This document shows, one piece after another, positions 51,813 through 64,000 of a DNA stretch of 64,000 nucleotides (positions are counted from its first letter, which is position 1; every line of letters starts with the position of its first letter). Where the stretch lies: contig JBFWOS010000001.1 in NCBI GenBank assembly GCA_050250375.1, positions 544,351-608,350 of the forward strand. Direction: 5' to 3'. Source of the DNA: Candidatus Omnitrophota bacterium (GTDB lineage: Bacteria > Omnitrophota > Gorgyraeia > Zapsychrales > Zapsychraceae). The notes under the pieces are model-generated. The model saw nothing but the letters and a program-made list of their open reading frames with translations. It searched no databases and had not been told where the DNA came from. The position numbers were made by a program, and so were the translations under genes.

Positions 51813-53171
51813 TTATTTTGAAGCTATATCAGGAGTAATAATATGAGGTGTAATAAATATGACTAAATCTGTTTTTGTGACACTGGACTCAGTTTTTGTA
51901 AATACCAACCCTAAAATTGGGACATCCCCTAGAATAGGCGTCTTTTTCTTTGTTTCAGTCGTCTGATCTGTAATAAGACCGGCGATGACCAACGTATCCC
52001 CGTCCTTGACCATTACCCGTGTTTTCGTTGATTCATTACTCAACCGCGGCAAGGTCGTGTTCTCAACGGTAACAAAATCAAGAATCGCCGTAATCTTTGG
52101 CAAGACATCCAATGTTATATATCCTGCATTATTCACATGCGGGGTAACATCAAATATGATACCAATATCTTTGTATTCCCAACCGGATACCTGAAGTCTA
52201 GCCTGCTCTTCATTATAAGTGTACGTAGGAATTGGATATTGGCTTCCCACCACAATTTGAGCGGCTTGATTGTCCAAGGTCACAATTCTCGGATTCTGTA
52301 ATATATCAGTATCGCTGCGAGATTTCAAGAGTTCAAATACAGCTTGAACTTGGCTGAAATTTAACGTCCCATATGTGAATTCTGTGTTAGCATTACCTTC
52401 CGTTGTGTCTGGGCCAGGATATGGATCGGTGGCAAATCGGCTTGCTGATCCATTGCTGTCAAACGGCCAGGTAATCGGTCTTTGTGAACCCGATGCCGTG
52501 GCTTGTGTTAACCAATCAACACCCAAATTCTCCGTATCTGTGAAGTTTGTCTCCACAATTTTCGCCTCTATCAACACCTGTGGTGTTGTCCGATCAAGCT
52601 CTTTAATGACTCCAGACATTAATTCAATCTGTTGCGGGGTATCTGTAATAATAATAGTATTAGTCCGTTCATCAAAATTGATACTTCCGCGGTCAGATTT
52701 CATTTTTTCAATGGATTCAATAATTTCAGAAGCTCTACCGAAGTTTAATATATGGGTTTTTGTTTCCAAAGGAATCTGCTCAGACAGGACCATCTGATCT
52801 TCCCTTCGCTGTTTTAGATTTTCGACAGTCGTAACAACAACAATATTCCCTTTTTGTTCGTATGCATACCCATACGTTTGAACAATTACATCCAACGCCT
52901 GTTTCCAGGGCACTTCGTTCAATTGGATCGTTACCACCCCCTGAACTTCCGGGCTGGCTACGATGTTGACCCCGCTTTTGAATGACAGGATCTTAAAAAC
53001 ATTGCGGATATCAGCATCACGAAAATCGAAGCTCACATTTCCGCTTTCTGACATGGAAACAGAATCTGCTGCAATATTCTGCGTCTTACCATCCACACTC
53101 TTGGTTTGTGCGTACCCAATAGTGGTCAGAAACAGGACGGCCGCCACGGTTAATGTTAATTTTCTGAACAT
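51813..53171 (-). CDS. pilQ: Type IV pilus secretin PilQ
   Basis: 452 aa; signal peptide; N-terminal secretin_N-like domains; C-terminal secretin motif LVIAGLI...TPILGDVPILGLVF. Confidence 0.9.
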   Translation of the reverse strand: MFRKLTLTVAAVLFLTTIGYAQTKSVDGKTQNIAADSVSMSESGNVSFDFRDADIRNVFKILSFKSGVNIVASPEVQGVVTIQLNEVPWKQALDVIVQTYGYAYEQKGNIVVVTTVENLKQRREDQMVLSEQIPLETKTHILNFGRASEIIESIEKMKSDRGSINFDERTNTIIITDTPQQIELMSGVIKELDRTTPQVLIEAKIVETNFTDTENLGVDWLTQATASGSQRPITWPFDSNGSASRFATDPYPGPDTTEGNANTEFTYGTLNFSQVQAVFELLKSRSDTDILQNPRIVTLDNQAAQIVVGSQYPIPTYTYNEEQARLQVSGWEYKDIGIIFDVTPHVNNAGYITLDVLPKITAILDFVTVENTTLPRLSNESTKTRVMVKDGDTLVIAGLITDQTTETKKKTPILGDVPILGLVFTKTESSVTKTDLVIFITPHIITPDIASK

Positions 53172-53172
53172 T

Positions 53173-53577
53173 TTATTCCTCCTTTTTAAGCTTTAGCTTG
53201 AATACCTGCTGGTCTTTTTGTAATAATACCCAATCATCCGTAATTTCCGTTATGATAAATTGGCCTATTTTGTCATCTACTTTGACGATCTTTCCGTTTA
53301 TCATCGCAATATTCCCGGCCGCTCCGGACATAATTCCCTGCAATGACAAATCTGAAACCATTAAATCTGCTTCATAATTATTGATGGTTCCGCTTGAACT
53401 GATGAGTTTCCAGAATGGATCCCTCCGTCCGTTATCGTTATATTTATACTCTGCGGACTCTTCAGCCGCATCAGAGATAACACACGCGCCCAATATGCTT
53501 ACGATTAATACAGCCGCCAATTTGTGTTGAATCTTGATTCGATGCATATTAATTCGCCTTTTCATAAACAATGGCAC
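53173..53577 (-). CDS. pilP: Pilus assembly lipoprotein PilP
   Basis: Lipobox LGAC; conserved RDPF motif; start may be a later ATG. Confidence 0.7.
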   Translation of the reverse strand: MPLFMKRRINMHRIKIQHKLAAVLIVSILGACVISDAAEESAEYKYNDNGRRDPFWKLISSSGTINNYEADLMVSDLSLQGIMSGAAGNIAMINGKIVKVDDKIGQFIITEITDDWVLLQKDQQVFKLKLKKEE

Positions 53578-54148
53578 CCAATGTTAATTTAATCGAATGT
53601 TCTTTCGTATTAGTGGATGATGCAATTGTCAACTTCGTCACTTTCAAAAAGATCTCTCCACGTTCAATAACGTCGATGAACCGTCCCAGATTGTGGTAAC
53701 CTGCCCTGGCCTCAATCTCAATCGGAAGCGCGTAATAAACCCTGTCATTATTCTCGAGTACGATTTCCGAATCAATAACGTTTGGCATAATTTGATTTAT
53801 CTTCACTCCATTGTCGTTTGCCAACCTGGATACATGCTCAAGAATTAATGGCACTTCTTCTCTAGGCTCAACCTTTTCGTTTTCCTTTTTAATAACGCCT
53901 TCAAGACGAGCAACCTCCTTCTGATATTGATCCAATTTCATTATTTCTCCCTTAGCTTTATCAATATCAACGGCTAATATCTTTAATTCAGGATTAATTT
54001 TCGTTAACGTGGCCAATTGCGGACGCATGAGAACAAAATAATCCAGAAGAAACACCAGCAACAACACTCCACCGAAAATATAATACAGCGTCTTGTCATC
54101 CAGTTTCTCAAATTTTTCGTTAAACTTTTCTTTTAAATCATTTTTCAT
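53549..54148 (-). CDS. pilO: Pilus assembly protein PilO
   Basis: Start trimmed to MKNDLKEK...; single TM then coiled-coil and PilO fold. Confidence 0.75.
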   Translation of the reverse strand: MKNDLKEKFNEKFEKLDDKTLYYIFGGVLLLVFLLDYFVLMRPQLATLTKINPELKILAVDIDKAKGEIMKLDQYQKEVARLEGVIKKENEKVEPREEVPLILEHVSRLANDNGVKINQIMPNVIDSEIVLENNDRVYYALPIEIEARAGYHNLGRFIDVIERGEIFLKVTKLTIASSTNTKEHSIKLTLGAIVYEKAN

Positions 54149-54743
54149 TTTTAATCTTACCCTTGATCTTTGTCGTAATAAGAAAATCCGCCACATCCAT
54201 TTTATTCTCTGTCCGACGCTGGATAGAACCCAACTCCAATTCCGTCAGGTGCTCAAGAAATTGGGGTTGTTTCTTTAAATTAGATGTAAGTTTATGAACA
54301 TTGATCAGTTCGTCTTGATGATTGGAAATGGCGCTGCCTTCGATAAACAACATTTCTTCTGTCAAAGCAATTTTAGTCAACCACACCCCTCTAGGCAAAT
54401 CATCACTAATAATATTAAGCTTCGGGGCCCAGAGAATGACTTTTCCGCCTGTAACTTCGGTGAGGGCTTTGCTTTTACTATTTATTGCACGCATATCGTT
54501 AACGATTTTATCCACTTGTTGTTTCTTGGGTAAAATTAACGCCCATTCCTGTTTCAATTCTTTATGTTTATTTAATTTCGAAATATTTGTCACCAGTAAT
54601 ACAATATGAACAATAATCAACAACGCAAACAACCCTCCGCACGAACCGATTACGACTTCAATGGGCATATCTATTCCACCGGGAAGAAATTTCTTCTTCT
54701 TTCTTCTCCTCAATTCAGGTGAGATTAAGTTAATTTCGATCAT
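54138..54743 (-). CDS. pilN: Pilus assembly protein PilN
   Basis: Begins MIEINLISPELRR, a PilN INLLP-type motif; single TM. Confidence 0.8.
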   Translation of the reverse strand: MIEINLISPELRRRKKKKFLPGGIDMPIEVVIGSCGGLFALLIIVHIVLLVTNISKLNKHKELKQEWALILPKKQQVDKIVNDMRAINSKSKALTEVTGGKVILWAPKLNIISDDLPRGVWLTKIALTEEMLFIEGSAISNHQDELINVHKLTSNLKKQPQFLEHLTELELGSIQRRTENKMDVADFLITTKIKGKIKNEK

Positions 54744-55782
54744 ATTGATAAAGTGCCAAACCTAAGGCGACACCAAGCCTGTTGGATTTCTTATTCAGCT
54801 CTTCTTTTGAAACTTTTTCCGAAACTACCACCATTTCAAACGGATTCCAGCGTTTGATTTCTATGTCCAGCTGTTTGGCAATGCTGTCTTCCAAACCGAT
54901 CATCATGGCTGCCCCGCCGGTCAAAATCAATTCGGATATTTCGTTACTATTCTCTGTCGAGAAATAATCCAACGACAACCTCAGCTCTTGAATCAAATTT
55001 GAAATAGCCGATTCGCACGCGTTCTGAATTTCCTTGAGGCGTTCCCCCGGATTACATTTAAGTTGTTCGGCTTCCTCATAGTCAACCGCCAATGCGTTGG
55101 CTATCCTTTTAGTCAAATCACGTCCTCCGACATAAATGTCTCGATTAAATTGTGGAGTTTGCCCGACCATCACTGTAAGGTTGCTGACAGAGTCTCCCAT
55201 ATCCAATATGGCAACAACTTTACCGTCCGACGATGAATCCAAGACGCTCCTGGCATTGGCTATAGCGATCGGATTTATTCCAATAAAATCCGTTTCAAAA
55301 CCCAGTCCGGTGATCATTTTCAAACGCATCTCAACCAATTCTTTTTTTGCGGCCGCTGCCATAACTTTCATCTGCTTTGACTTGCCCAGGGGATCCAAGA
55401 TATAACAATCCGTATAAATCTGATCTTGTGTAAAAGGAAAATATTTGTCCGCTTCAATCGAGAATGAATTTCTTAAATCATCAAGAGACATGCGCGGCAT
55501 ATCTATAAAACGGATCAAGGTTCCCTTACCGTACACGGAGGTATAAATATTCTCAACCGGCATGCTCACCTGATTTAAAATTGTCTTCACAGTGGTTGTG
55601 TAATCCCCACCAACAATGGGTTGAACCGCCCAATTAAGGATTTTATAAGAATCCCCTTCTCGGTAAACTTCAACCATTTTGCAGGAATTAATTCCTATAT
55701 CTAATCCGACTGAGGAACCCTCTTTTTTCTTAGGAATAAAACGTTTGATAAATTTGAAATAATTTTGTAATAATTTGTTCAT
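54730..55782 (-). CDS. pilM: Pilus assembly protein PilM (actin-like ATPase fold)
   Basis: 350 aa; GLDIGINSCKMVEV start typical of PilM/FtsA-like. Confidence 0.85.
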   Translation of the reverse strand: MNKLLQNYFKFIKRFIPKKKEGSSVGLDIGINSCKMVEVYREGDSYKILNWAVQPIVGGDYTTTVKTILNQVSMPVENIYTSVYGKGTLIRFIDMPRMSLDDLRNSFSIEADKYFPFTQDQIYTDCYILDPLGKSKQMKVMAAAAKKELVEMRLKMITGLGFETDFIGINPIAIANARSVLDSSSDGKVVAILDMGDSVSNLTVMVGQTPQFNRDIYVGGRDLTKRIANALAVDYEEAEQLKCNPGERLKEIQNACESAISNLIQELRLSLDYFSTENSNEISELILTGGAAMMIGLEDSIAKQLDIEIKRWNPFEMVVVSEKVSKEELNKKSNRLGVALGLALYQYDRN

Positions 55783-55919: not shown

Positions 55920-56243
55920 CTATTGTACTAAATTAACATCATCAAGAGGAATTTCATAAATTATTTTTTGCCGTTTTTTCTTGGGCGTTGCGCTCAATTC
56001 ATTATCCGGTTCGGACATCAATTCGCTGGTATCCAAGAAAGTTGACTGGTCATTGGTTTGGGAACTGGTACGTAGCGCGTTATTCAAACGCATTTTCTGG
56101 GTTGTAGGATTGGCTGGCGTAGTGATCTTCTTTGTCTCTTCAATCTCGTATGATACCCAACTATTGGCCATGAATATTGCACATAATATGACGACTACAA
56201 CGATCAAAAGAGTATTTGACATATTGTTAGTTCTTGCGGCCAT
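55920..56243 (-). CDS. Small single-TM hypothetical protein, translationally coupled (TAATG) to the PilX-N protein
   Basis: 107 aa; N-terminal TM LLIVVVVILCAIFMA, then polar unstructured region. Confidence 0.45.
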   Translation of the reverse strand: MAARTNNMSNTLLIVVVVILCAIFMANSWVSYEIEETKKITTPANPTTQKMRLNNALRTSSQTNDQSTFLDTSELMSEPDNELSATPKKKRQKIIYEIPLDDVNLVQ

Positions 56244-57946
56244 TATGAATCTCCTTCTTGCCAGATCATTTTGTCGGTGATGTCATTGGTGAAGGCAATA
56301 AAAGTATTTAACGATGGAAAATATGGCGGGGCATTTCCCACAGCCATTCGTTCATCATACACAAAATTACGTCCGTATCCTGCTGTTTGTGTGCCCGTTG
56401 CACCATTAAACTGGCCGAAAGCCCCATAAAAGTCAGAAATGACACCTCCCAGCAATGTTGCTACTCCGCGCCCGCCCACTCCCGAGTCATTATAATTATC
56501 GACCTGGAATATACCGGCCTTAGCAAGAATCGTTCCGTGAACATTTACATCATTCGGCGCCGAAGTGCCGATACGCACGTTTCCGTTCCAGGAAACCAAC
56601 CCTAACAGGTTCCCCGCGTTCGAAGGAACACTGGGAGCAACATAACCGGCTTGTCCCGGCGTACCTACGGCAGAATTATAATTTTGATACTGAAGATGAT
56701 TGCTGATAACAATATCGTTGTTACTGGATATCGTTACAGCGGTATCACCATGAACTGTACCGCTCAAATTATTGATATCCCCGTTTACATAAATAACGGT
56801 CCCAACCCCATCCACTCCGTCCGGAACCCCGCCATATACAGTCGTTCCGACACTGACATGTTCGACCGTTGTCTGATTGGTTGACCTGTTGACTGTAATT
56901 ATTTTCTGGGAACCTCCCTGAACAATATTGTATACGGCATTATTGCTCCCGTCGACGGATAAGGTGACATTGCTGTTTCCTTCAACGTAGATGCCTCCGG
57001 TTAGACTCGTCCCATTATTGGAAATATAAATTCCGTTCCCCGAGATACTGGCACTTCCCAGCGCCTGGTCAACAAGATCCTGTTGTTGACTGGCTGATGA
57101 TAAAGAAATCGCACTTGCGCTTCGGTTAAATCCCGAATTAAACGTCGGGACATCTATACTTCCGTTGGATGCGGCATCCAGAAGAATCGGGGAACCACCG
57201 TTATAAAAACGAGCCAGTTGCTCCACCTGATCAACTCTTCCGTCAAAAATACCGCTGGGATTTAACGCGATATTGTACCTTCCGTTGGTATGCAGCGGCC
57301 CGGCAAAATTCGTCTTATCGGTAAACCAGACGTTGGTTCCGTTAGGCAAAGTTTGTTGATTGGTAAAAAGGGCATATTTGGCAAAATTATCCCGTTGGAC
57401 TCGCACAGTAAAGTCTCCCGACAAAACAACATCTTTATTTGTACCTTGGGATGTTCCGGTCGAAACAATCCGATAGTTATAAGGGAAATCCCAGGAATCT
57501 GCCGTGACTATTATCGGATTCGTTTTTTCGGAAATTGAAACATCATATTGATAAGTCCCGTTGCCTAAAGCTGAGGATTGTATGTATCTGGCATTTATCC
57601 CATTTAATGTTAAGGCCGGCACCCCTCCGTTCTTGACATAATTGATCAAGAAACCGATTCCATCGTTATTGGCGACATAGGTTGTCGTCTGAGCAACCAG
57701 GGTTGATGGATTCGTTGCGTTAACTGTATTAAGCATATAACTATTGATTAATGTATCCAACCCGTCTAAAGCGGCCTTCGATCCACCTTCAGCGATATAA
57801 AATGACTTAGCCAAATCCAATTCTCTTTGAGCAACCCTGCTTTCATAAATTGTCCGAAGAATAAAGACACTACTCAATCCCAACAGAACGACAACAACAA
57901 ACAACGCAATGATAAGTGCCACCCCTCTTTCATTATTTATTTTCAT
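56243..57946 (-). CDS. PilX N-terminal domain protein with long N/G/S/T-rich beta-helix-like region (putative pilus tip/adhesin)
   Basis: 567 aa; N-terminus MKINNERGVALIIALFVVVVLLGL resembles PilX_N; repetitive xGxNxVxS segments. Confidence 0.6.
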   Translation of the reverse strand: MKINNERGVALIIALFVVVVLLGLSSVFILRTIYESRVAQRELDLAKSFYIAEGGSKAALDGLDTLINSYMLNTVNATNPSTLVAQTTTYVANNDGIGFLINYVKNGGVPALTLNGINARYIQSSALGNGTYQYDVSISEKTNPIIVTADSWDFPYNYRIVSTGTSQGTNKDVVLSGDFTVRVQRDNFAKYALFTNQQTLPNGTNVWFTDKTNFAGPLHTNGRYNIALNPSGIFDGRVDQVEQLARFYNGGSPILLDAASNGSIDVPTFNSGFNRSASAISLSSASQQQDLVDQALGSASISGNGIYISNNGTSLTGGIYVEGNSNVTLSVDGSNNAVYNIVQGGSQKIITVNRSTNQTTVEHVSVGTTVYGGVPDGVDGVGTVIYVNGDINNLSGTVHGDTAVTISSNNDIVISNHLQYQNYNSAVGTPGQAGYVAPSVPSNAGNLLGLVSWNGNVRIGTSAPNDVNVHGTILAKAGIFQVDNYNDSGVGGRGVATLLGGVISDFYGAFGQFNGATGTQTAGYGRNFVYDERMAVGNAPPYFPSLNTFIAFTNDITDKMIWQEGDS

Positions 57947-57951
57947 CGGAT

Positions 57952-58632
57952 TTACCCCCTATTCCTTAGATACACAACCATACTATTCGTCATTGTCATA
58001 GTTCTATTCTTCATCGAAGTTCCCAACGCGGTTACTGTGATTGTCACCTCATTCTGGTCCACACTCATAGCCGCCTGAAAATCGGAAATCTTTTGAGCGA
58101 ATATATCCGTCCGCACCAGGGCATTCGCCGCGTTGCGGACCCGCCGCTCGAGTTGATTATTATTATTTATGGCATATTCAAGGTAACTGTATTCCACTGT
58201 CGAGCAATCATCATCGGCATCCATACAGGTTGAATCCGTGCACCCCCAAGTCAATGGAGCTCCCCAATTCGCCACATCCCCATTGTTATCAATAATTGTT
58301 TGTCCTGCTTCACAAATAACCGGCATAAAAAATTGAATTACATCCGAACTATTAACCCCGGCATTATCATTAATTGTCACCTGCATCACTCCTGCGCCGT
58401 TAGACCCCGACTCTCTCAACTCTTTAGAAATTTTTTCCAGCGTTAACCTTAAATTTTCCTGCAACTCAATCTGTAAGGCGGTGTTGGCCCAGCTGTTTTG
58501 ACCTGCTGCCATAGACATATACACTCCACCCATCATGGCTGTAAGGATCGCAACCGCAACCATAAGCTCCACAAGGCTGAATCCCCTGTTGACTTTAATC
58601 TTCAAATTTATTAATTTTTTATTATTGGTCAT
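57952..58632 (-). CDS. Type IV minor pilin (prepilin-type N-terminal cleavage/methylation domain)
   Basis: 226 aa; NRG|FSLVELMVAVAIL class III signal, E at +5. Confidence 0.8.
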   Translation of the reverse strand: MTNNKKLINLKIKVNRGFSLVELMVAVAILTAMMGGVYMSMAAGQNSWANTALQIELQENLRLTLEKISKELRESGSNGAGVMQVTINDNAGVNSSDVIQFFMPVICEAGQTIIDNNGDVANWGAPLTWGCTDSTCMDADDDCSTVEYSYLEYAINNNNQLERRVRNAANALVRTDIFAQKISDFQAAMSVDQNEVTITVTALGTSMKNRTMTMTNSMVVYLRNRG

Positions 58633-59074
58633 ATCTATAAGTCACCAACTGAACAGTTGAGTCGATTATGCCGTTGCCATTTGTATCCTCGCCGGCATCA
58701 AGACTGCCATCCAAATCGGTGTCTTCTCCAATAAGCAATCCATTTTTCTGTCTCCAACAAAACGAAACAGTTATCTGGACAAGATCAGGGTTTGTATTAT
58801 TAACATAAGAAACACCGGCACCGTTAATAGCCGGTTCAAAAAAGGAAACATTGTTGAAATTCGCCATCAATTGAGTAAAATCTGAATTACTGATTTGTTC
58901 CATACGGGTTTTCGCGGCTCTAGTAGCCATTGATTTGTTCCGGGACATTTCATTCAACTCCAGACATTTTGTGTAGGTTACCAATATACCAACGAAGGCG
59001 AGTATCATGACAACGGCCGCTACCATTACTTCTGCCAAAGCAAATCCCTCATTTCCTTTAAGTTTCAATTTCAT
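58622..59074 (-). CDS. Type IV minor pilin with EF-hand-like Ca-binding loops
   Basis: 150 aa; NEG|FALAEVMVAAVV; DTDLDGSLDAGE and DTNGNGIIDS loops. Confidence 0.8.
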   Translation of the reverse strand: MKLKLKGNEGFALAEVMVAAVVMILAFVGILVTYTKCLELNEMSRNKSMATRAAKTRMEQISNSDFTQLMANFNNVSFFEPAINGAGVSYVNNTNPDLVQITVSFCWRQKNGLLIGEDTDLDGSLDAGEDTNGNGIIDSTVQLVTYRYDQ

Positions 59075-59167: not shown

Positions 59168-59566
59168 CTATGGTGTTAAAATACCGCCTGTTGTGACAGT
59201 AAAAACAGTCGTACCTGAAGTACCTAGTGATACAGGCGTAGCTGTAAAGGAATATGACCCAGCTCCCCATGCGCAACCGAAGGTAAATCCGCTACGAGCA
59301 ACACCATCACAATAATCTTCCTGTAAATACGCCGGGACGGCTCCAGTTAAAGAAGACATGTCCAATGGATAATTTCCATTGTTGGCAGTCGCGAATGTTT
59401 CTGATGACGTTGACATTGTACGTAATGTACTTTGTGCCAAGGCATCGTTAGCTGAGATTTTGGCTCTCAGCAAATTCGGAATCGCGATAGCGGCCAGCAG
59501 AGCGATGATCGCGACAACGATCATAATTTCTACCAGCGTAAAACCTTTATTGTTTATCCTTTTCAT
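59168..59566 (-). CDS. pilA: Type IVa major pilin
   Basis: 132 aa; MKRINNKG|FTLVEIMIVVAIIALLAAIAIPNLLRAKISAN; AAGGAGG RBS. Confidence 0.9.
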   Translation of the reverse strand: MKRINNKGFTLVEIMIVVAIIALLAAIAIPNLLRAKISANDALAQSTLRTMSTSSETFATANNGNYPLDMSSLTGAVPAYLQEDYCDGVARSGFTFGCAWGAGSYSFTATPVSLGTSGTTVFTVTTGGILTP

Positions 59567-60923: not shown

Positions 60924-62132
60924 TTAAATAATCTGCGTTATGTTCATGATTGGCATGAAAAGGGCAATGACGATAAAACCAATAACAATACCCAGAACAC
61001 CTATAATAAGCGGCTCGATTATGCTGGTCAACCCTTCCACAGCCGCATCTACCTGGTCATCATAGAACTCGGATATTTTAAGTAACATTTTCTCCAACTG
61101 ACCGGATTTTTCACCGATCGCGATCATCCGCGTAACCATCGGCGGAAAGACTTTACTCTTGCTTAATGGCGGGGCAATACTTTCCCCTCCGCGCACATTA
61201 TTCTTGACCTCATCAACGACGAGTTCAAGCACCCTGTTCCCAATCGTCTTACCGACAATATCCAAAGATTCAAGGATCGGAACACCGCTTTGAATTAATG
61301 TCGCCAAAGTGCGGCTAAACCGGCTGATCGCAACCTTACGCAGCAAGTCTCCAAATATCGGCAGCTTTAACACAGCACCATCAATGACCACCGCGCCTTT
61401 GTTTGTTTTATGCCATTGCTGCAACGTGACAACCAATATAAAGAGTGCCCCCACAATCCATAATAAATATTTCTGCAAACCTTCACTGATCGCCATTAAA
61501 AGCTGGGTCATGGGAGGAAGTTCAGAATTCAGAGATGCATAAATTCCGGCAAAGGTTGGAACTACCTTAACAAGCAACAAAATGGTTATAAGGACAGCCA
61601 TGGTTACAACGACCGCCGGATAAATCAAAGCAGCCTTAACCTTGCGCCTTAATTTAAGTGTCTTTTCCATGTAGAACGAGACACGGTCAAGCACCTGCGC
61701 CAAAACACCACCGGTTTCCCCGACTCTGACCATATTAACGAATAACGTATCAAAAACCTGCGGATGCTTCGAGAACGATACAGACAAGCTGCTTCCATGC
61801 GAGATATCTTCAGCAATATTACCCAATACTTTTTTAAACATTGGATGAGTCACTTGTTCTTGTAATGCATCCAGCCCCTGAACGATTGGGATGCCGGCAT
61901 CAACCATAGTTGCTAACTGGCGGGAAAATATTACGATTTCATCAGGCTTAACCTTCTTACTCGTAAAAGAACTTTTTTTCTTACTAACCGTATCTTTGAT
62001 TTCATTAATAGATATAATGACAAGTTTTCGTTTGCGCAACTCCTCAATCACGGCAACTTTATTATCCGCTGCAATCTTGCCGGTTACGCTTTTTGATTCC
62101 TGATTTTTTGCTACATATTTGAAGGTGGCCAT
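60924..62132 (-). CDS. pilC: Type IV pilus platform protein PilC (GspF family)
   Basis: 402 aa; two T2SSF repeats, three TMs. Confidence 0.9.
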   Translation of the reverse strand: MATFKYVAKNQESKSVTGKIAADNKVAVIEELRKRKLVIISINEIKDTVSKKKSSFTSKKVKPDEIVIFSRQLATMVDAGIPIVQGLDALQEQVTHPMFKKVLGNIAEDISHGSSLSVSFSKHPQVFDTLFVNMVRVGETGGVLAQVLDRVSFYMEKTLKLRRKVKAALIYPAVVVTMAVLITILLLVKVVPTFAGIYASLNSELPPMTQLLMAISEGLQKYLLWIVGALFILVVTLQQWHKTNKGAVVIDGAVLKLPIFGDLLRKVAISRFSRTLATLIQSGVPILESLDIVGKTIGNRVLELVVDEVKNNVRGGESIAPPLSKSKVFPPMVTRMIAIGEKSGQLEKMLLKISEFYDDQVDAAVEGLTSIIEPLIIGVLGIVIGFIVIALFMPIMNITQII

Positions 62133-62371: not shown

Positions 62372-64000
62372 TTAATCACTCGCCGTTATACGCAGGACTT
62401 CGTCAAGCGTCGTTTGTCCGTTTAAACACTTATCCATGGCATCCTCAAACAAGGTGCGCATTTCCTTGTTCTTTCTTGCGAATTCCTTGATAACATCGGA
62501 AGATTCGCCCTTAAGAAGAAGATTGCGGACATCATCATCAACTTCCAACAGCTCTGTGATTCCCATTCTTCCCTGATAGCCCAGGCGGCGGCATTTGTCA
62601 CACCCCTTACCACTATAAAATTTTGTATCGGCCTTAACCGGGTATTTCAGGTCATCCAACAAAGCCTTTGGAAGAGCGATTTCCTCGCGGCAAGATTGGC
62701 AAATTCTTCGGCACAGTCTTTGGGCGCTGATTAAGAAAATACTAGAGGCCACCAGAAAAGGCTCAACATCCATGTCAATCAGACGGGTCAAAGCACTTGC
62801 GGAATCATTCGTGTGTAAAGTAGAAAAAACCAACTGTCCGGTTAAAGAGGCTTTTATGGCGATATCCGCCGTTTCTCCATCACGAATTTCCCCCACCATG
62901 ACAACGTCGGGACTTTGACGTAAAATCGATCTCAATCCTTCGGCAAAAGTCAGCCCGATCTCAGGCCTCGCCTGAATTTGAGTTAACCCCTCGACTAAAT
63001 ACTCCACTGGATCCTCAACCGTAATGACATTTTTTTCCACCGTGTTTAATTTGCTGACCAATGAATACAACGTGGTTGATTTTCCGCTACCGGTCGGTCC
63101 TGTCACAAGCATCATCCCAAAGGGTTTTACGGTCGCCTCTTCCAATATTGTGAGCGCCTTATCATTAAATCCCAAGCCCGCCAACCCAACCGAAAGGCTT
63201 CCCTTATCCAGTATCCGCATAACAATCTTTTCCCCGAACGTTGTCGGAAGCATGGAGACCCGGAAATCGACTTCTTTGTTGGCAATCTTCAACTTAAAAC
63301 GTCCGTCTTGGGGCACATGACTTAATGTAATATCAAGACGCGCCATAATTTTGATTCTCACGATAACCGCATTTTGATTTTCTTTGGGGATTTCCAAAAT
63401 GTTGGTGAGAATCCCGTCTATCCGGTATCGAACCTTCATGCCGTTTGTCTTAGGCTCGATATGAATATCCGAGGCTCTTTGTTTGATGGCTTCTTTCACA
63501 ATCAGATTGACCATACGGATGATGGGGGCCTTCTCACTTTCATCCACGGAACTATCCAGGTCTTCCTCCCCATCACTTTCGGAAACAATCTCAAAATCTT
63601 CAACATCAATATCTTTACTAATCTCCGTGACACTATTTTCCGCTTTCAAACCATAGAAGCTATCAATGACTTTCAGTATTTCGTCATTTGTACTCATGAC
63701 GATCTCAATTTCTTTACCGGTTATATTTTTAAGGTCATCAATAATAAAAACATTTAGCGGGTCAGAAACCGCTATCGTCAATGTTTCATCCAGTAATGAC
63801 AACGGGATAATCTGGTACTGCCGTGCAATGCGTTCGGGAATGGTTTCCTGCAAAGCAGGATCAAACTTATATTTGGATAAATTAATAAACGGGATGTTCA
63901 ATTCGCGGACTAACAAGACCAGCAAATCTTTTTCCTTAATGAGCCCTTTCTCAACAATTGCTTTCTCTAAAGTAATGCCTTTACGTTTCTGAAAGACCAT
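62372..64000 (-). CDS. pilB: Type IV pilus assembly ATPase PilB (GspE family); N-terminus at or beyond window edge
   Basis: GSPII_E N-domain; Walker A GPTGSGKSTT; tetracysteine Zn motif; ATG occupies the last 3 nt of the window. Confidence 0.9.
   Translation of the reverse strand: MVFQKRKGITLEKAIVEKGLIKEKDLLVLLVRELNIPFINLSKYKFDPALQETIPERIARQYQIIPLSLLDETLTIAVSDPLNVFIIDDLKNITGKEIEIVMSTNDEILKVIDSFYGLKAENSVTEISKDIDVEDFEIVSESDGEEDLDSSVDESEKAPIIRMVNLIVKEAIKQRASDIHIEPKTNGMKVRYRIDGILTNILEIPKENQNAVIVRIKIMARLDITLSHVPQDGRFKLKIANKEVDFRVSMLPTTFGEKIVMRILDKGSLSVGLAGLGFNDKALTILEEATVKPFGMMLVTGPTGSGKSTTLYSLVSKLNTVEKNVITVEDPVEYLVEGLTQIQARPEIGLTFAEGLRSILRQSPDVVMVGEIRDGETADIAIKASLTGQLVFSTLHTNDSASALTRLIDMDVEPFLVASSIFLISAQRLCRRICQSCREEIALPKALLDDLKYPVKADTKFYSGKGCDKCRRLGYQGRMGITELLEVDDDVRNLLLKGESSDVIKEFARKNKEMRTLFEDAMDKCLNGQTTLDEVLRITASD

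Follow-up and report, generated by a model that had tools for sequence, protein, structure and literature searches.

A DUF4900 protein of an Omnitrophota pilus locus, read as a probable terminal minor pilin with a predicted ice-binding-type beta-solenoid

The design of a tip pilin that bears a beta-solenoid is already known. ComZ of Thermus thermophilus (554 aa; PDB 6QVI), a proposed tip pilin, joins a GspK-like pilin domain to a large triangular beta-solenoid whose nearest kin are ice-binding proteins and which is set into the pilin sheet after its penultimate strand and before the last; its leader is atypical for a pilin, and its gene adjoins those of minor pilins, with pilA1-pilA2-pilA3 beside comZ (Salleh et al. 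2019, PMC6561018). The same pairing of pilin and solenoid is described for every cyanobacterial PilX homologue: PilX-Com and PilX-EPS are terminal minor pilins that lack Glu5 and carry a bulky apical triangular beta-solenoid, PilX co-occurs with partner minor pilins, and it has been proposed as a substitute for the PilY1 'plug' where PilY1 is absent (bioRxiv 10.64898/2026.02.12.705559). The closest known tip systems also include GspK/XcpX, the tip of the pseudopilus in type II secretion systems (T2SS; PDB 3CI0, 5VTM), and P. aeruginosa PilX. Here we describe a 567-aa protein encoded in an Omnitrophota pilus locus that is most likely a ComZ-like or cyanobacterial-PilX-like tip pilin.

The gene (56243..57946, minus strand) lies in a stretch of 64,000 nucleotides, referred to here as the window. 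Its open reading frame was as given in a preliminary description made from the letters of the window, with an ATG start and a Shine-Dalgarno-like AGGGGG 8-13 nt 5' of it; the encoded N-terminus reads MKINNERGVALIIALFVVVVLLGL, and the two peptides quoted in that description were located at residues 327 and 384. Because hundreds of full-length homologues (55-95% identity) and a Pfam match above the curated cut-off were found, we take the gene to be real on the strength of sequence comparison. The low content of charged residues and the N/G/S/T-rich body noted earlier were both confirmed: D+E+K+R make up 12.2% of the protein, against a mean of 27.0% (SD 5.1) in the window's other long ORFs, and N+G+S+T make up 39.0%, the highest value of the set (mean 23.2%, SD 3.9, for the window's long ORFs). 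The protein contains no cysteine. Its exported part is strongly acidic (net -14, pI 4.7), a trait shared by each of the 52 orthologues from Omnitrophota that were looked at (median net -22, pI 4.45).

The surrounding genes, all on the minus strand, form a pilus cluster. Immediately upstream is the gene for a 226-aa minor pilin of GspJ/PilW type (57952..58632; leader G/FSLVE), preceded by that for a 150-aa minor pilin (58622..59074; leader G/FALAE), which is GspI/PilV-like by position and size only, its NCBIfam scores being weak and below cut-off (gspI 19.2 bits, PilV 12.2 bits), and by that for a 132-aa major pilin (59168..59566; leader G/FTLVE) with N_methyl and TIGR02532 above cut-off and N-terminal matches to PilA/GspG. 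Farther upstream, one ORF (60924-62132) codes for a pilC-type platform protein and another (62372-64000), cut off by the end of the window, for a pilB-type ATPase; each of two syntenic loci, L002 and L003, has T2SSF and MshEN+T2SSE Pfam domains at the matching positions. On the other side follow ORFs for pilM (54730-55782), pilN (54138-54743), pilO (53549-54196), a 134-aa protein in the PilP position (53173-53577) and the secretin pilQ (51813-53171), in the same order as in L002 and L003, where Pfam PilM_2, PilN, PilO and Secretin stand in the order of the window; tblastn also found homologues. The whole pilB-pilC-pilin-minor pilins-pilMNOPQ context was found again in both of these loci, and no PilY1/PilC Pfam domain was listed in either. 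Across 80 species-level Omnitrophota loci, an I-like pilin was present upstream in 76 and a J-like pilin in 70, and the place of the gene after the minor pilins, which the preliminary description had pointed out, is conserved together with them across about 80 species. In Velamenicoccus archaeovorus LiM, the orthologue is found on NZ_CP019384.1 at about 1.38 Mb (locus L062). The predicted structure of the 226-aa J-like pilin best matched Thermus TTHA1219, a type IV-like pilin, to which the J-like profile also matched marginally in a search of PDB sequences (E 0.063, query 8-130); otherwise, the profiles of the 150-aa and 226-aa pilins matched only N-terminal helices there. The minor pilins are most like T2SS pseudopilins.

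On its 3' side, the gene overlaps that of a 107-aa membrane protein with one N-terminal transmembrane segment (55920..56243, minus strand), the TAA stop and ATG start sharing one base (TAATG) in agreement with the coupling reported earlier. This small protein matched no family in Pfam or NCBIfam. Past its transmembrane segment come a linker that varies and, at residues 96-107 (window 55923-55958), a conserved C-terminal motif, YE.P...xLxQ. A comparable small transmembrane ORF was found 3' of the gene in 76 of 84 sequences (the loci and this window), where it usually starts at -23 to +4 nt relative to the DUF4900 gene.

The 567-aa protein begins with MKINNERG (residues 1-8; 57923..57946, minus strand), followed by VALIIALFVVVVLLGL, that is, with a short basic leader ending in Gly and then a hydrophobic alpha-1N helix. 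From this we infer a prepilin-type (class III) leader with a putative prepilin-peptidase site after Gly8. Gly stands directly before the hydrophobic helix in 218 of 229 full-length family members and is usually preceded by K or R. The predicted mature N-terminus, VALII, has Ile rather than Glu at position +5, unlike all three neighbouring pilins, in which Glu5 is present; among 218 relatives, Glu was found at +5 in one and was absent in 217. A missing Glu5 is a mark of the terminal GspK/PilX class. A processing site had been proposed as something to look for, and a leader of the K/R-G type without Glu5 is what both the protein and nearly all of its relatives have. The preliminary assignment of the N-terminal helix to PilX_N held as to the type of helix, which is supported as PilX/GspK-like, but not as a Pfam match, since the score of PilX_N (12.5 bits) was below its cut-off of 25.5; the same model reached E <= 0.01 in 9 of 49 relatives (best 1.5e-8). 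NCBIfam T2SS_GspK gave a weak N-terminal match of 15.9 bits against a cut-off of 130, and assignment as the GspK equivalog was rejected on that score. Because the GspK and PilX_N scores are below cut-off, yet PilX_N reaches such significance in relatives, the protein is read as resembling the GspK/PilX class in its working without being a GspK equivalog.

The Pfam family to which the protein belongs is DUF4900 (PF16241), matched at 56.6 bits against a gathering threshold of 29.4 over residues 157-238 (57233..57478, minus strand), where the pilin sheet passes into the first turns of the solenoid. The matched region carries a family signature motif, FAKYALFT...VWFT..TNFAGPxHTN, and is among the best-conserved stretches in our alignments of Omnitrophota sequences (A1) and of 49 diverse relatives with 25% mean identity (A3), of which 48 match DUF4900; it is also kept in the Deinococcota homologues (alignment A2). 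The genome scan for loci used an alignment narrower than A3 (A4) and yielded Omnitrophota only, bar a few MAGs with other labels, while the spread of the family beyond Omnitrophota was taken from a search of representatives and a profile search. Clustered at 50% identity, the family still has over 2,000 representatives, and in the literature that we searched DUF4900 is mentioned by a single paper, on an unrelated subject. Distant DUF4900 homologues, including those of Thermus scotoductus, Truepera and Calidithermus, likewise close operons of 2-3 prepilin genes and are homologous end to end with the Omnitrophota proteins (hhalign probability 100%, E 6e-67). This Omnitrophota locus has one conserved DUF4900 copy. 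Median identity across loci was 53% for the 567-aa protein, compared to 55% for PilQ, 43% for PilM, 38% for PilN and 35% for PilO, and such conservation, on par with the secretin, would fit a core part of the machine.

An AlphaFold2 model of the protein (pLDDT 83.9, pTM 0.72) shows a helix at residues 6-77, a sheet at 113-184 and, from there to about residue 530, a body rich in beta-structure, and was compared with the PDB by Foldseek. The model places in one predicted chain a pilin-like domain (residues 9-186; 57389..57922, minus strand), made of the long alpha-1 (6-77), two short helices (80-103) and the antiparallel sheet (113-184), and a large triangular beta-solenoid of about 350 residues (residues 187-535; 56342..57388, minus strand); the pilin domain resembles the GspK fold. 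A conserved C-terminal tail (APPYFPSLNTFIAFTNDITDKMIWQEGDS; residues 536-567; 56246..56341, minus strand), with 77% mean identity among close orthologues, is modelled with two short strands after the solenoid (549-552 and 561-564) at a low confidence of pLDDT 45-57. The beta-helix-like body of the preliminary description was thus recovered as a predicted beta-solenoid of ice-binding-protein type, and the pectate-lyase type of right-handed beta-helix that it had suggested was rejected, the closest folds of the solenoid being of the former kind. The short repeats that it had reported were not borne out as sequence repeats, given that, when residues 191-535 were aligned locally with themselves, the top off-diagonal score was 43, compared to 37.7 +/- 4.6 (maximum 53) for shuffles; the periodicity of the solenoid is structural and compositional, with no detectable sequence repeat.

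The sole significant Foldseek match in the PDB was ComZ 6qvi (E 5e-8 to 2e-7, probability 1.0), at 11-15% identity. The two proteins are alike in size, in the pairing of pilin domain and triangular solenoid, in an atypical leader and in the nearness of minor pilin genes. In sequence, on the other hand, 6qvi was matched neither by the single 567-aa sequence (phmmer) nor by profile A1 among PDB sequences at E <= 10, nor by the Deinococcota profile A2 at E <= 1, and the link to ComZ is, as far as the model and these searches go, structural only. Further differences are that the 567-aa protein falls in Pfam DUF4900, whose Deinococcota profile misses the ComZ sequence, that it is strongly acidic, and that a conserved gene for a small membrane protein stands 3' of it. 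The cyanobacterial PilX proteins, likened here by description, belong to another phylum and form two functional subfamilies, compared to the single copy at the Omnitrophota locus.

The insertion of GspK is alpha-helical and about 100 residues long, not a beta-solenoid, and the machine here has PilMNO rather than the GspLM of T2SS. CofB/TcpB of type IVb pili and PilB and PilC of S. sanguinis also fuse a pilin domain to a large functional module shown on the fibre, yet the added folds are beta-repeat/sandwich or vWA (PilB), not solenoid, and the pilus subtypes differ. The Caldicellulosiruptor tapirins (PDB 4WA0, 6N2B) were deposited as C-terminal domains without a pilin domain, and their match to the model was much weaker than those of ComZ or ice-binding proteins. 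PilY1/PilC of Proteobacteria would share the proposed job, that of a large non-polymerising tip protein acting with minor pilins as a plug and possible adhesin, but PilY1, a non-pilin, carries a Sec signal peptide and has a beta-propeller (PF05567) at its C-terminus. Membership of that family was rejected, as the 567-aa protein had neither a Pfam nor a fold match to PilY1/PilC. The view that the architecture stands outside the standard PilY1/PilC tip proteins therefore survives in part, in that the protein is not PilY1/PilC-like; its design had already been described for ComZ (PMC6561018) and cyanobacterial PilX (bioRxiv 10.64898/2026.02.12.705559).

Overall, we consider it probable (roughly 75%) that the protein is the terminal, Glu5-less minor pilin of GspK/PilX class at the tip of an Omnitrophota type IV pilus, bearing an ice-binding-type triangular beta-solenoid of about 350 residues in the architecture of ComZ and cyanobacterial PilX. 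Direct support comes from the predicted fold, the type of leader and its want of Glu5, a neighbour that is GspJ-like, a gene order that is conserved and the lack of a PilY1/PilC match in the protein. Counting against it are the absence of sequence similarity to ComZ, the low model confidence of the C-terminal strands, the PilX_N and GspK scores below cut-off, the I-like identity of the 150-aa pilin by position and weak matches, and the finding of neither a prepilin peptidase nor a PilT gene among the window ORFs examined (those of the cluster region and ten others scanned against Pfam). Of the tip adhesin candidate put forward earlier, the location is retained: a pilus tip is the reading that fits best, as no structure is closer than that of ComZ, itself a proposed tip pilin, and as this protein and nearly all relatives lack Glu5. 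Mechanistically, the leader MKINNERG would be removed at Gly8, and the hydrophobic alpha-1 would pack with the helices of the 226-aa GspJ/PilW-like and 150-aa pilins, the three likely forming a priming complex on the PilC/PilMNO platform, as judged from GspI-J-K and PilVWX. Without Glu5, no subunit could be added above the 567-aa protein, which would stay distal while the major pilin polymerises beneath it, and the bulky solenoid may then cap the fibre and offer a binding surface, doing the job of PilY1 in Proteobacteria. Conservation is higher in the solenoid than in the pilin domain, a pattern that a host-specific adhesin would not lead one to expect. Because the solenoid is highly conserved and acidic, a structural cap or a conserved ligand (a partner protein or common surface polymer) seems to fit better than a fast-evolving host-specific adhesin or a DNA receptor.

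The same architecture and tip place could also serve the job of ComZ itself, natural transformation, in which the protein would act as the DNA receptor of a competence pilus; we consider this unlikely. Both the best structural match and the best match of the J-like neighbour (ComZ and TTHA1219, respectively) come from Thermus, and ComZ is able to bind DNA although no positive patch is obvious on it (PMC6561018). The acidity of the exported part (pI 4.7; all 52 orthologues acidic) is a weak argument only against DNA binding. There is also no sequence homology to ComZ, so that its two DNA-binding lysines are not mappable onto the 567-aa protein. Moreover, the DUF4900 operon of Thermus scotoductus is unlike the comZ locus as described in its gene content, and because of this difference a role of DUF4900 apart from that of ComZ is suggested. 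Neither comEA nor comEC nor dprA was found among the window ORFs examined (those of the cluster region and ten further ones scanned against Pfam).

Slightly less credible, and in our view improbable, is a type II secretion-like machine in which the protein, as the equivalent of GspK, would cap a short pseudopilus in the periplasm that drives substrates through the secretin, rather than tip a long fibre at the surface. The order of major, I-like, J-like and K-like pilins does mirror gspG-(H)-I-J-K, and the minor pilins are closest to T2SS pseudopilins, yet Thermus minor pilins are T2SS-like too and are part of true pili (PMC6561018). PilT was seen neither among the same window ORFs nor in L002 or L003; secretion and pilus genes, moreover, recurrently adjoin giant Omnitrophota ORFs (bioRxiv 10.64898/2026.06.07.730766). 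Nevertheless, the cluster carries PilM/PilN/PilO, not GspL/GspM/GspC, Omnitrophota clusters of this kind have been classed as type IVa pili, which Velamenicoccus archaeovorus is reported to express (PMC10066038), and a solenoid of about 350 residues is a trait of surface-exposed tip pilins such as ComZ and cyanobacterial PilX. Least of all do we credit a free or membrane-anchored beta-solenoid apart from any pilus, held by an uncleaved N-terminal anchor and acting as an ice-binding/antifreeze protein or polysaccharide-degrading beta-helix enzyme, as the part of the chain ahead of the solenoid is a pilin domain with GspK-like matches, the gene stays bound to an operon of minor pilins in about 80 species as well as in distant phyla, Pfam gave no match to DUF3494 (rejected as its family) or to any enzyme family at E <= 1, and ice-binding-protein similarity was judged uninformative on function by the authors of the ComZ study (PMC6561018).

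Read as a terminal minor pilin, a Pfam 'domain of unknown function' gains a probable role, at the tip of a pilus or in its priming, although its novelty is limited by the earlier publication of both the solenoid architecture and the idea of a solenoid in place of PilY1. More tentatively, and with considerable doubt, DUF4900 might represent a second, sequence-distinct and wide class of solenoid terminal pilins (in Omnitrophota, Deinococcota including Thermus, and other unassigned lineages), parallel to the ComZ type, with Thermus having one of each for the priming of separate pili; in Omnitrophota, which are ultra-small and host-dependent, it might be a conserved device for host or prey contact, with the co-translated small membrane protein docking through YE.P...LxQ as chaperone or anchor. 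The Thermus DUF4900 and comZ loci echo what was found in cyanobacteria, where two kinds of pilus have two priming complexes (bioRxiv 10.64898/2026.02.12.705559), and the Thermus DUF4900 operon, distinct from the comZ locus as described, offers a genetically tractable route to the function of the family. Omnitrophota are uncultured nanobacteria whose type IV pili are presumed to serve in attaching to the cells of hosts or prey (PMC10066038). The tip protein would be the obvious candidate for the point of contact in these pili, and the 567-aa protein ranks with the best-conserved components of the machinery; for these reasons, studies of localisation and binding in the V. archaeovorus enrichment would have in it a concrete target.

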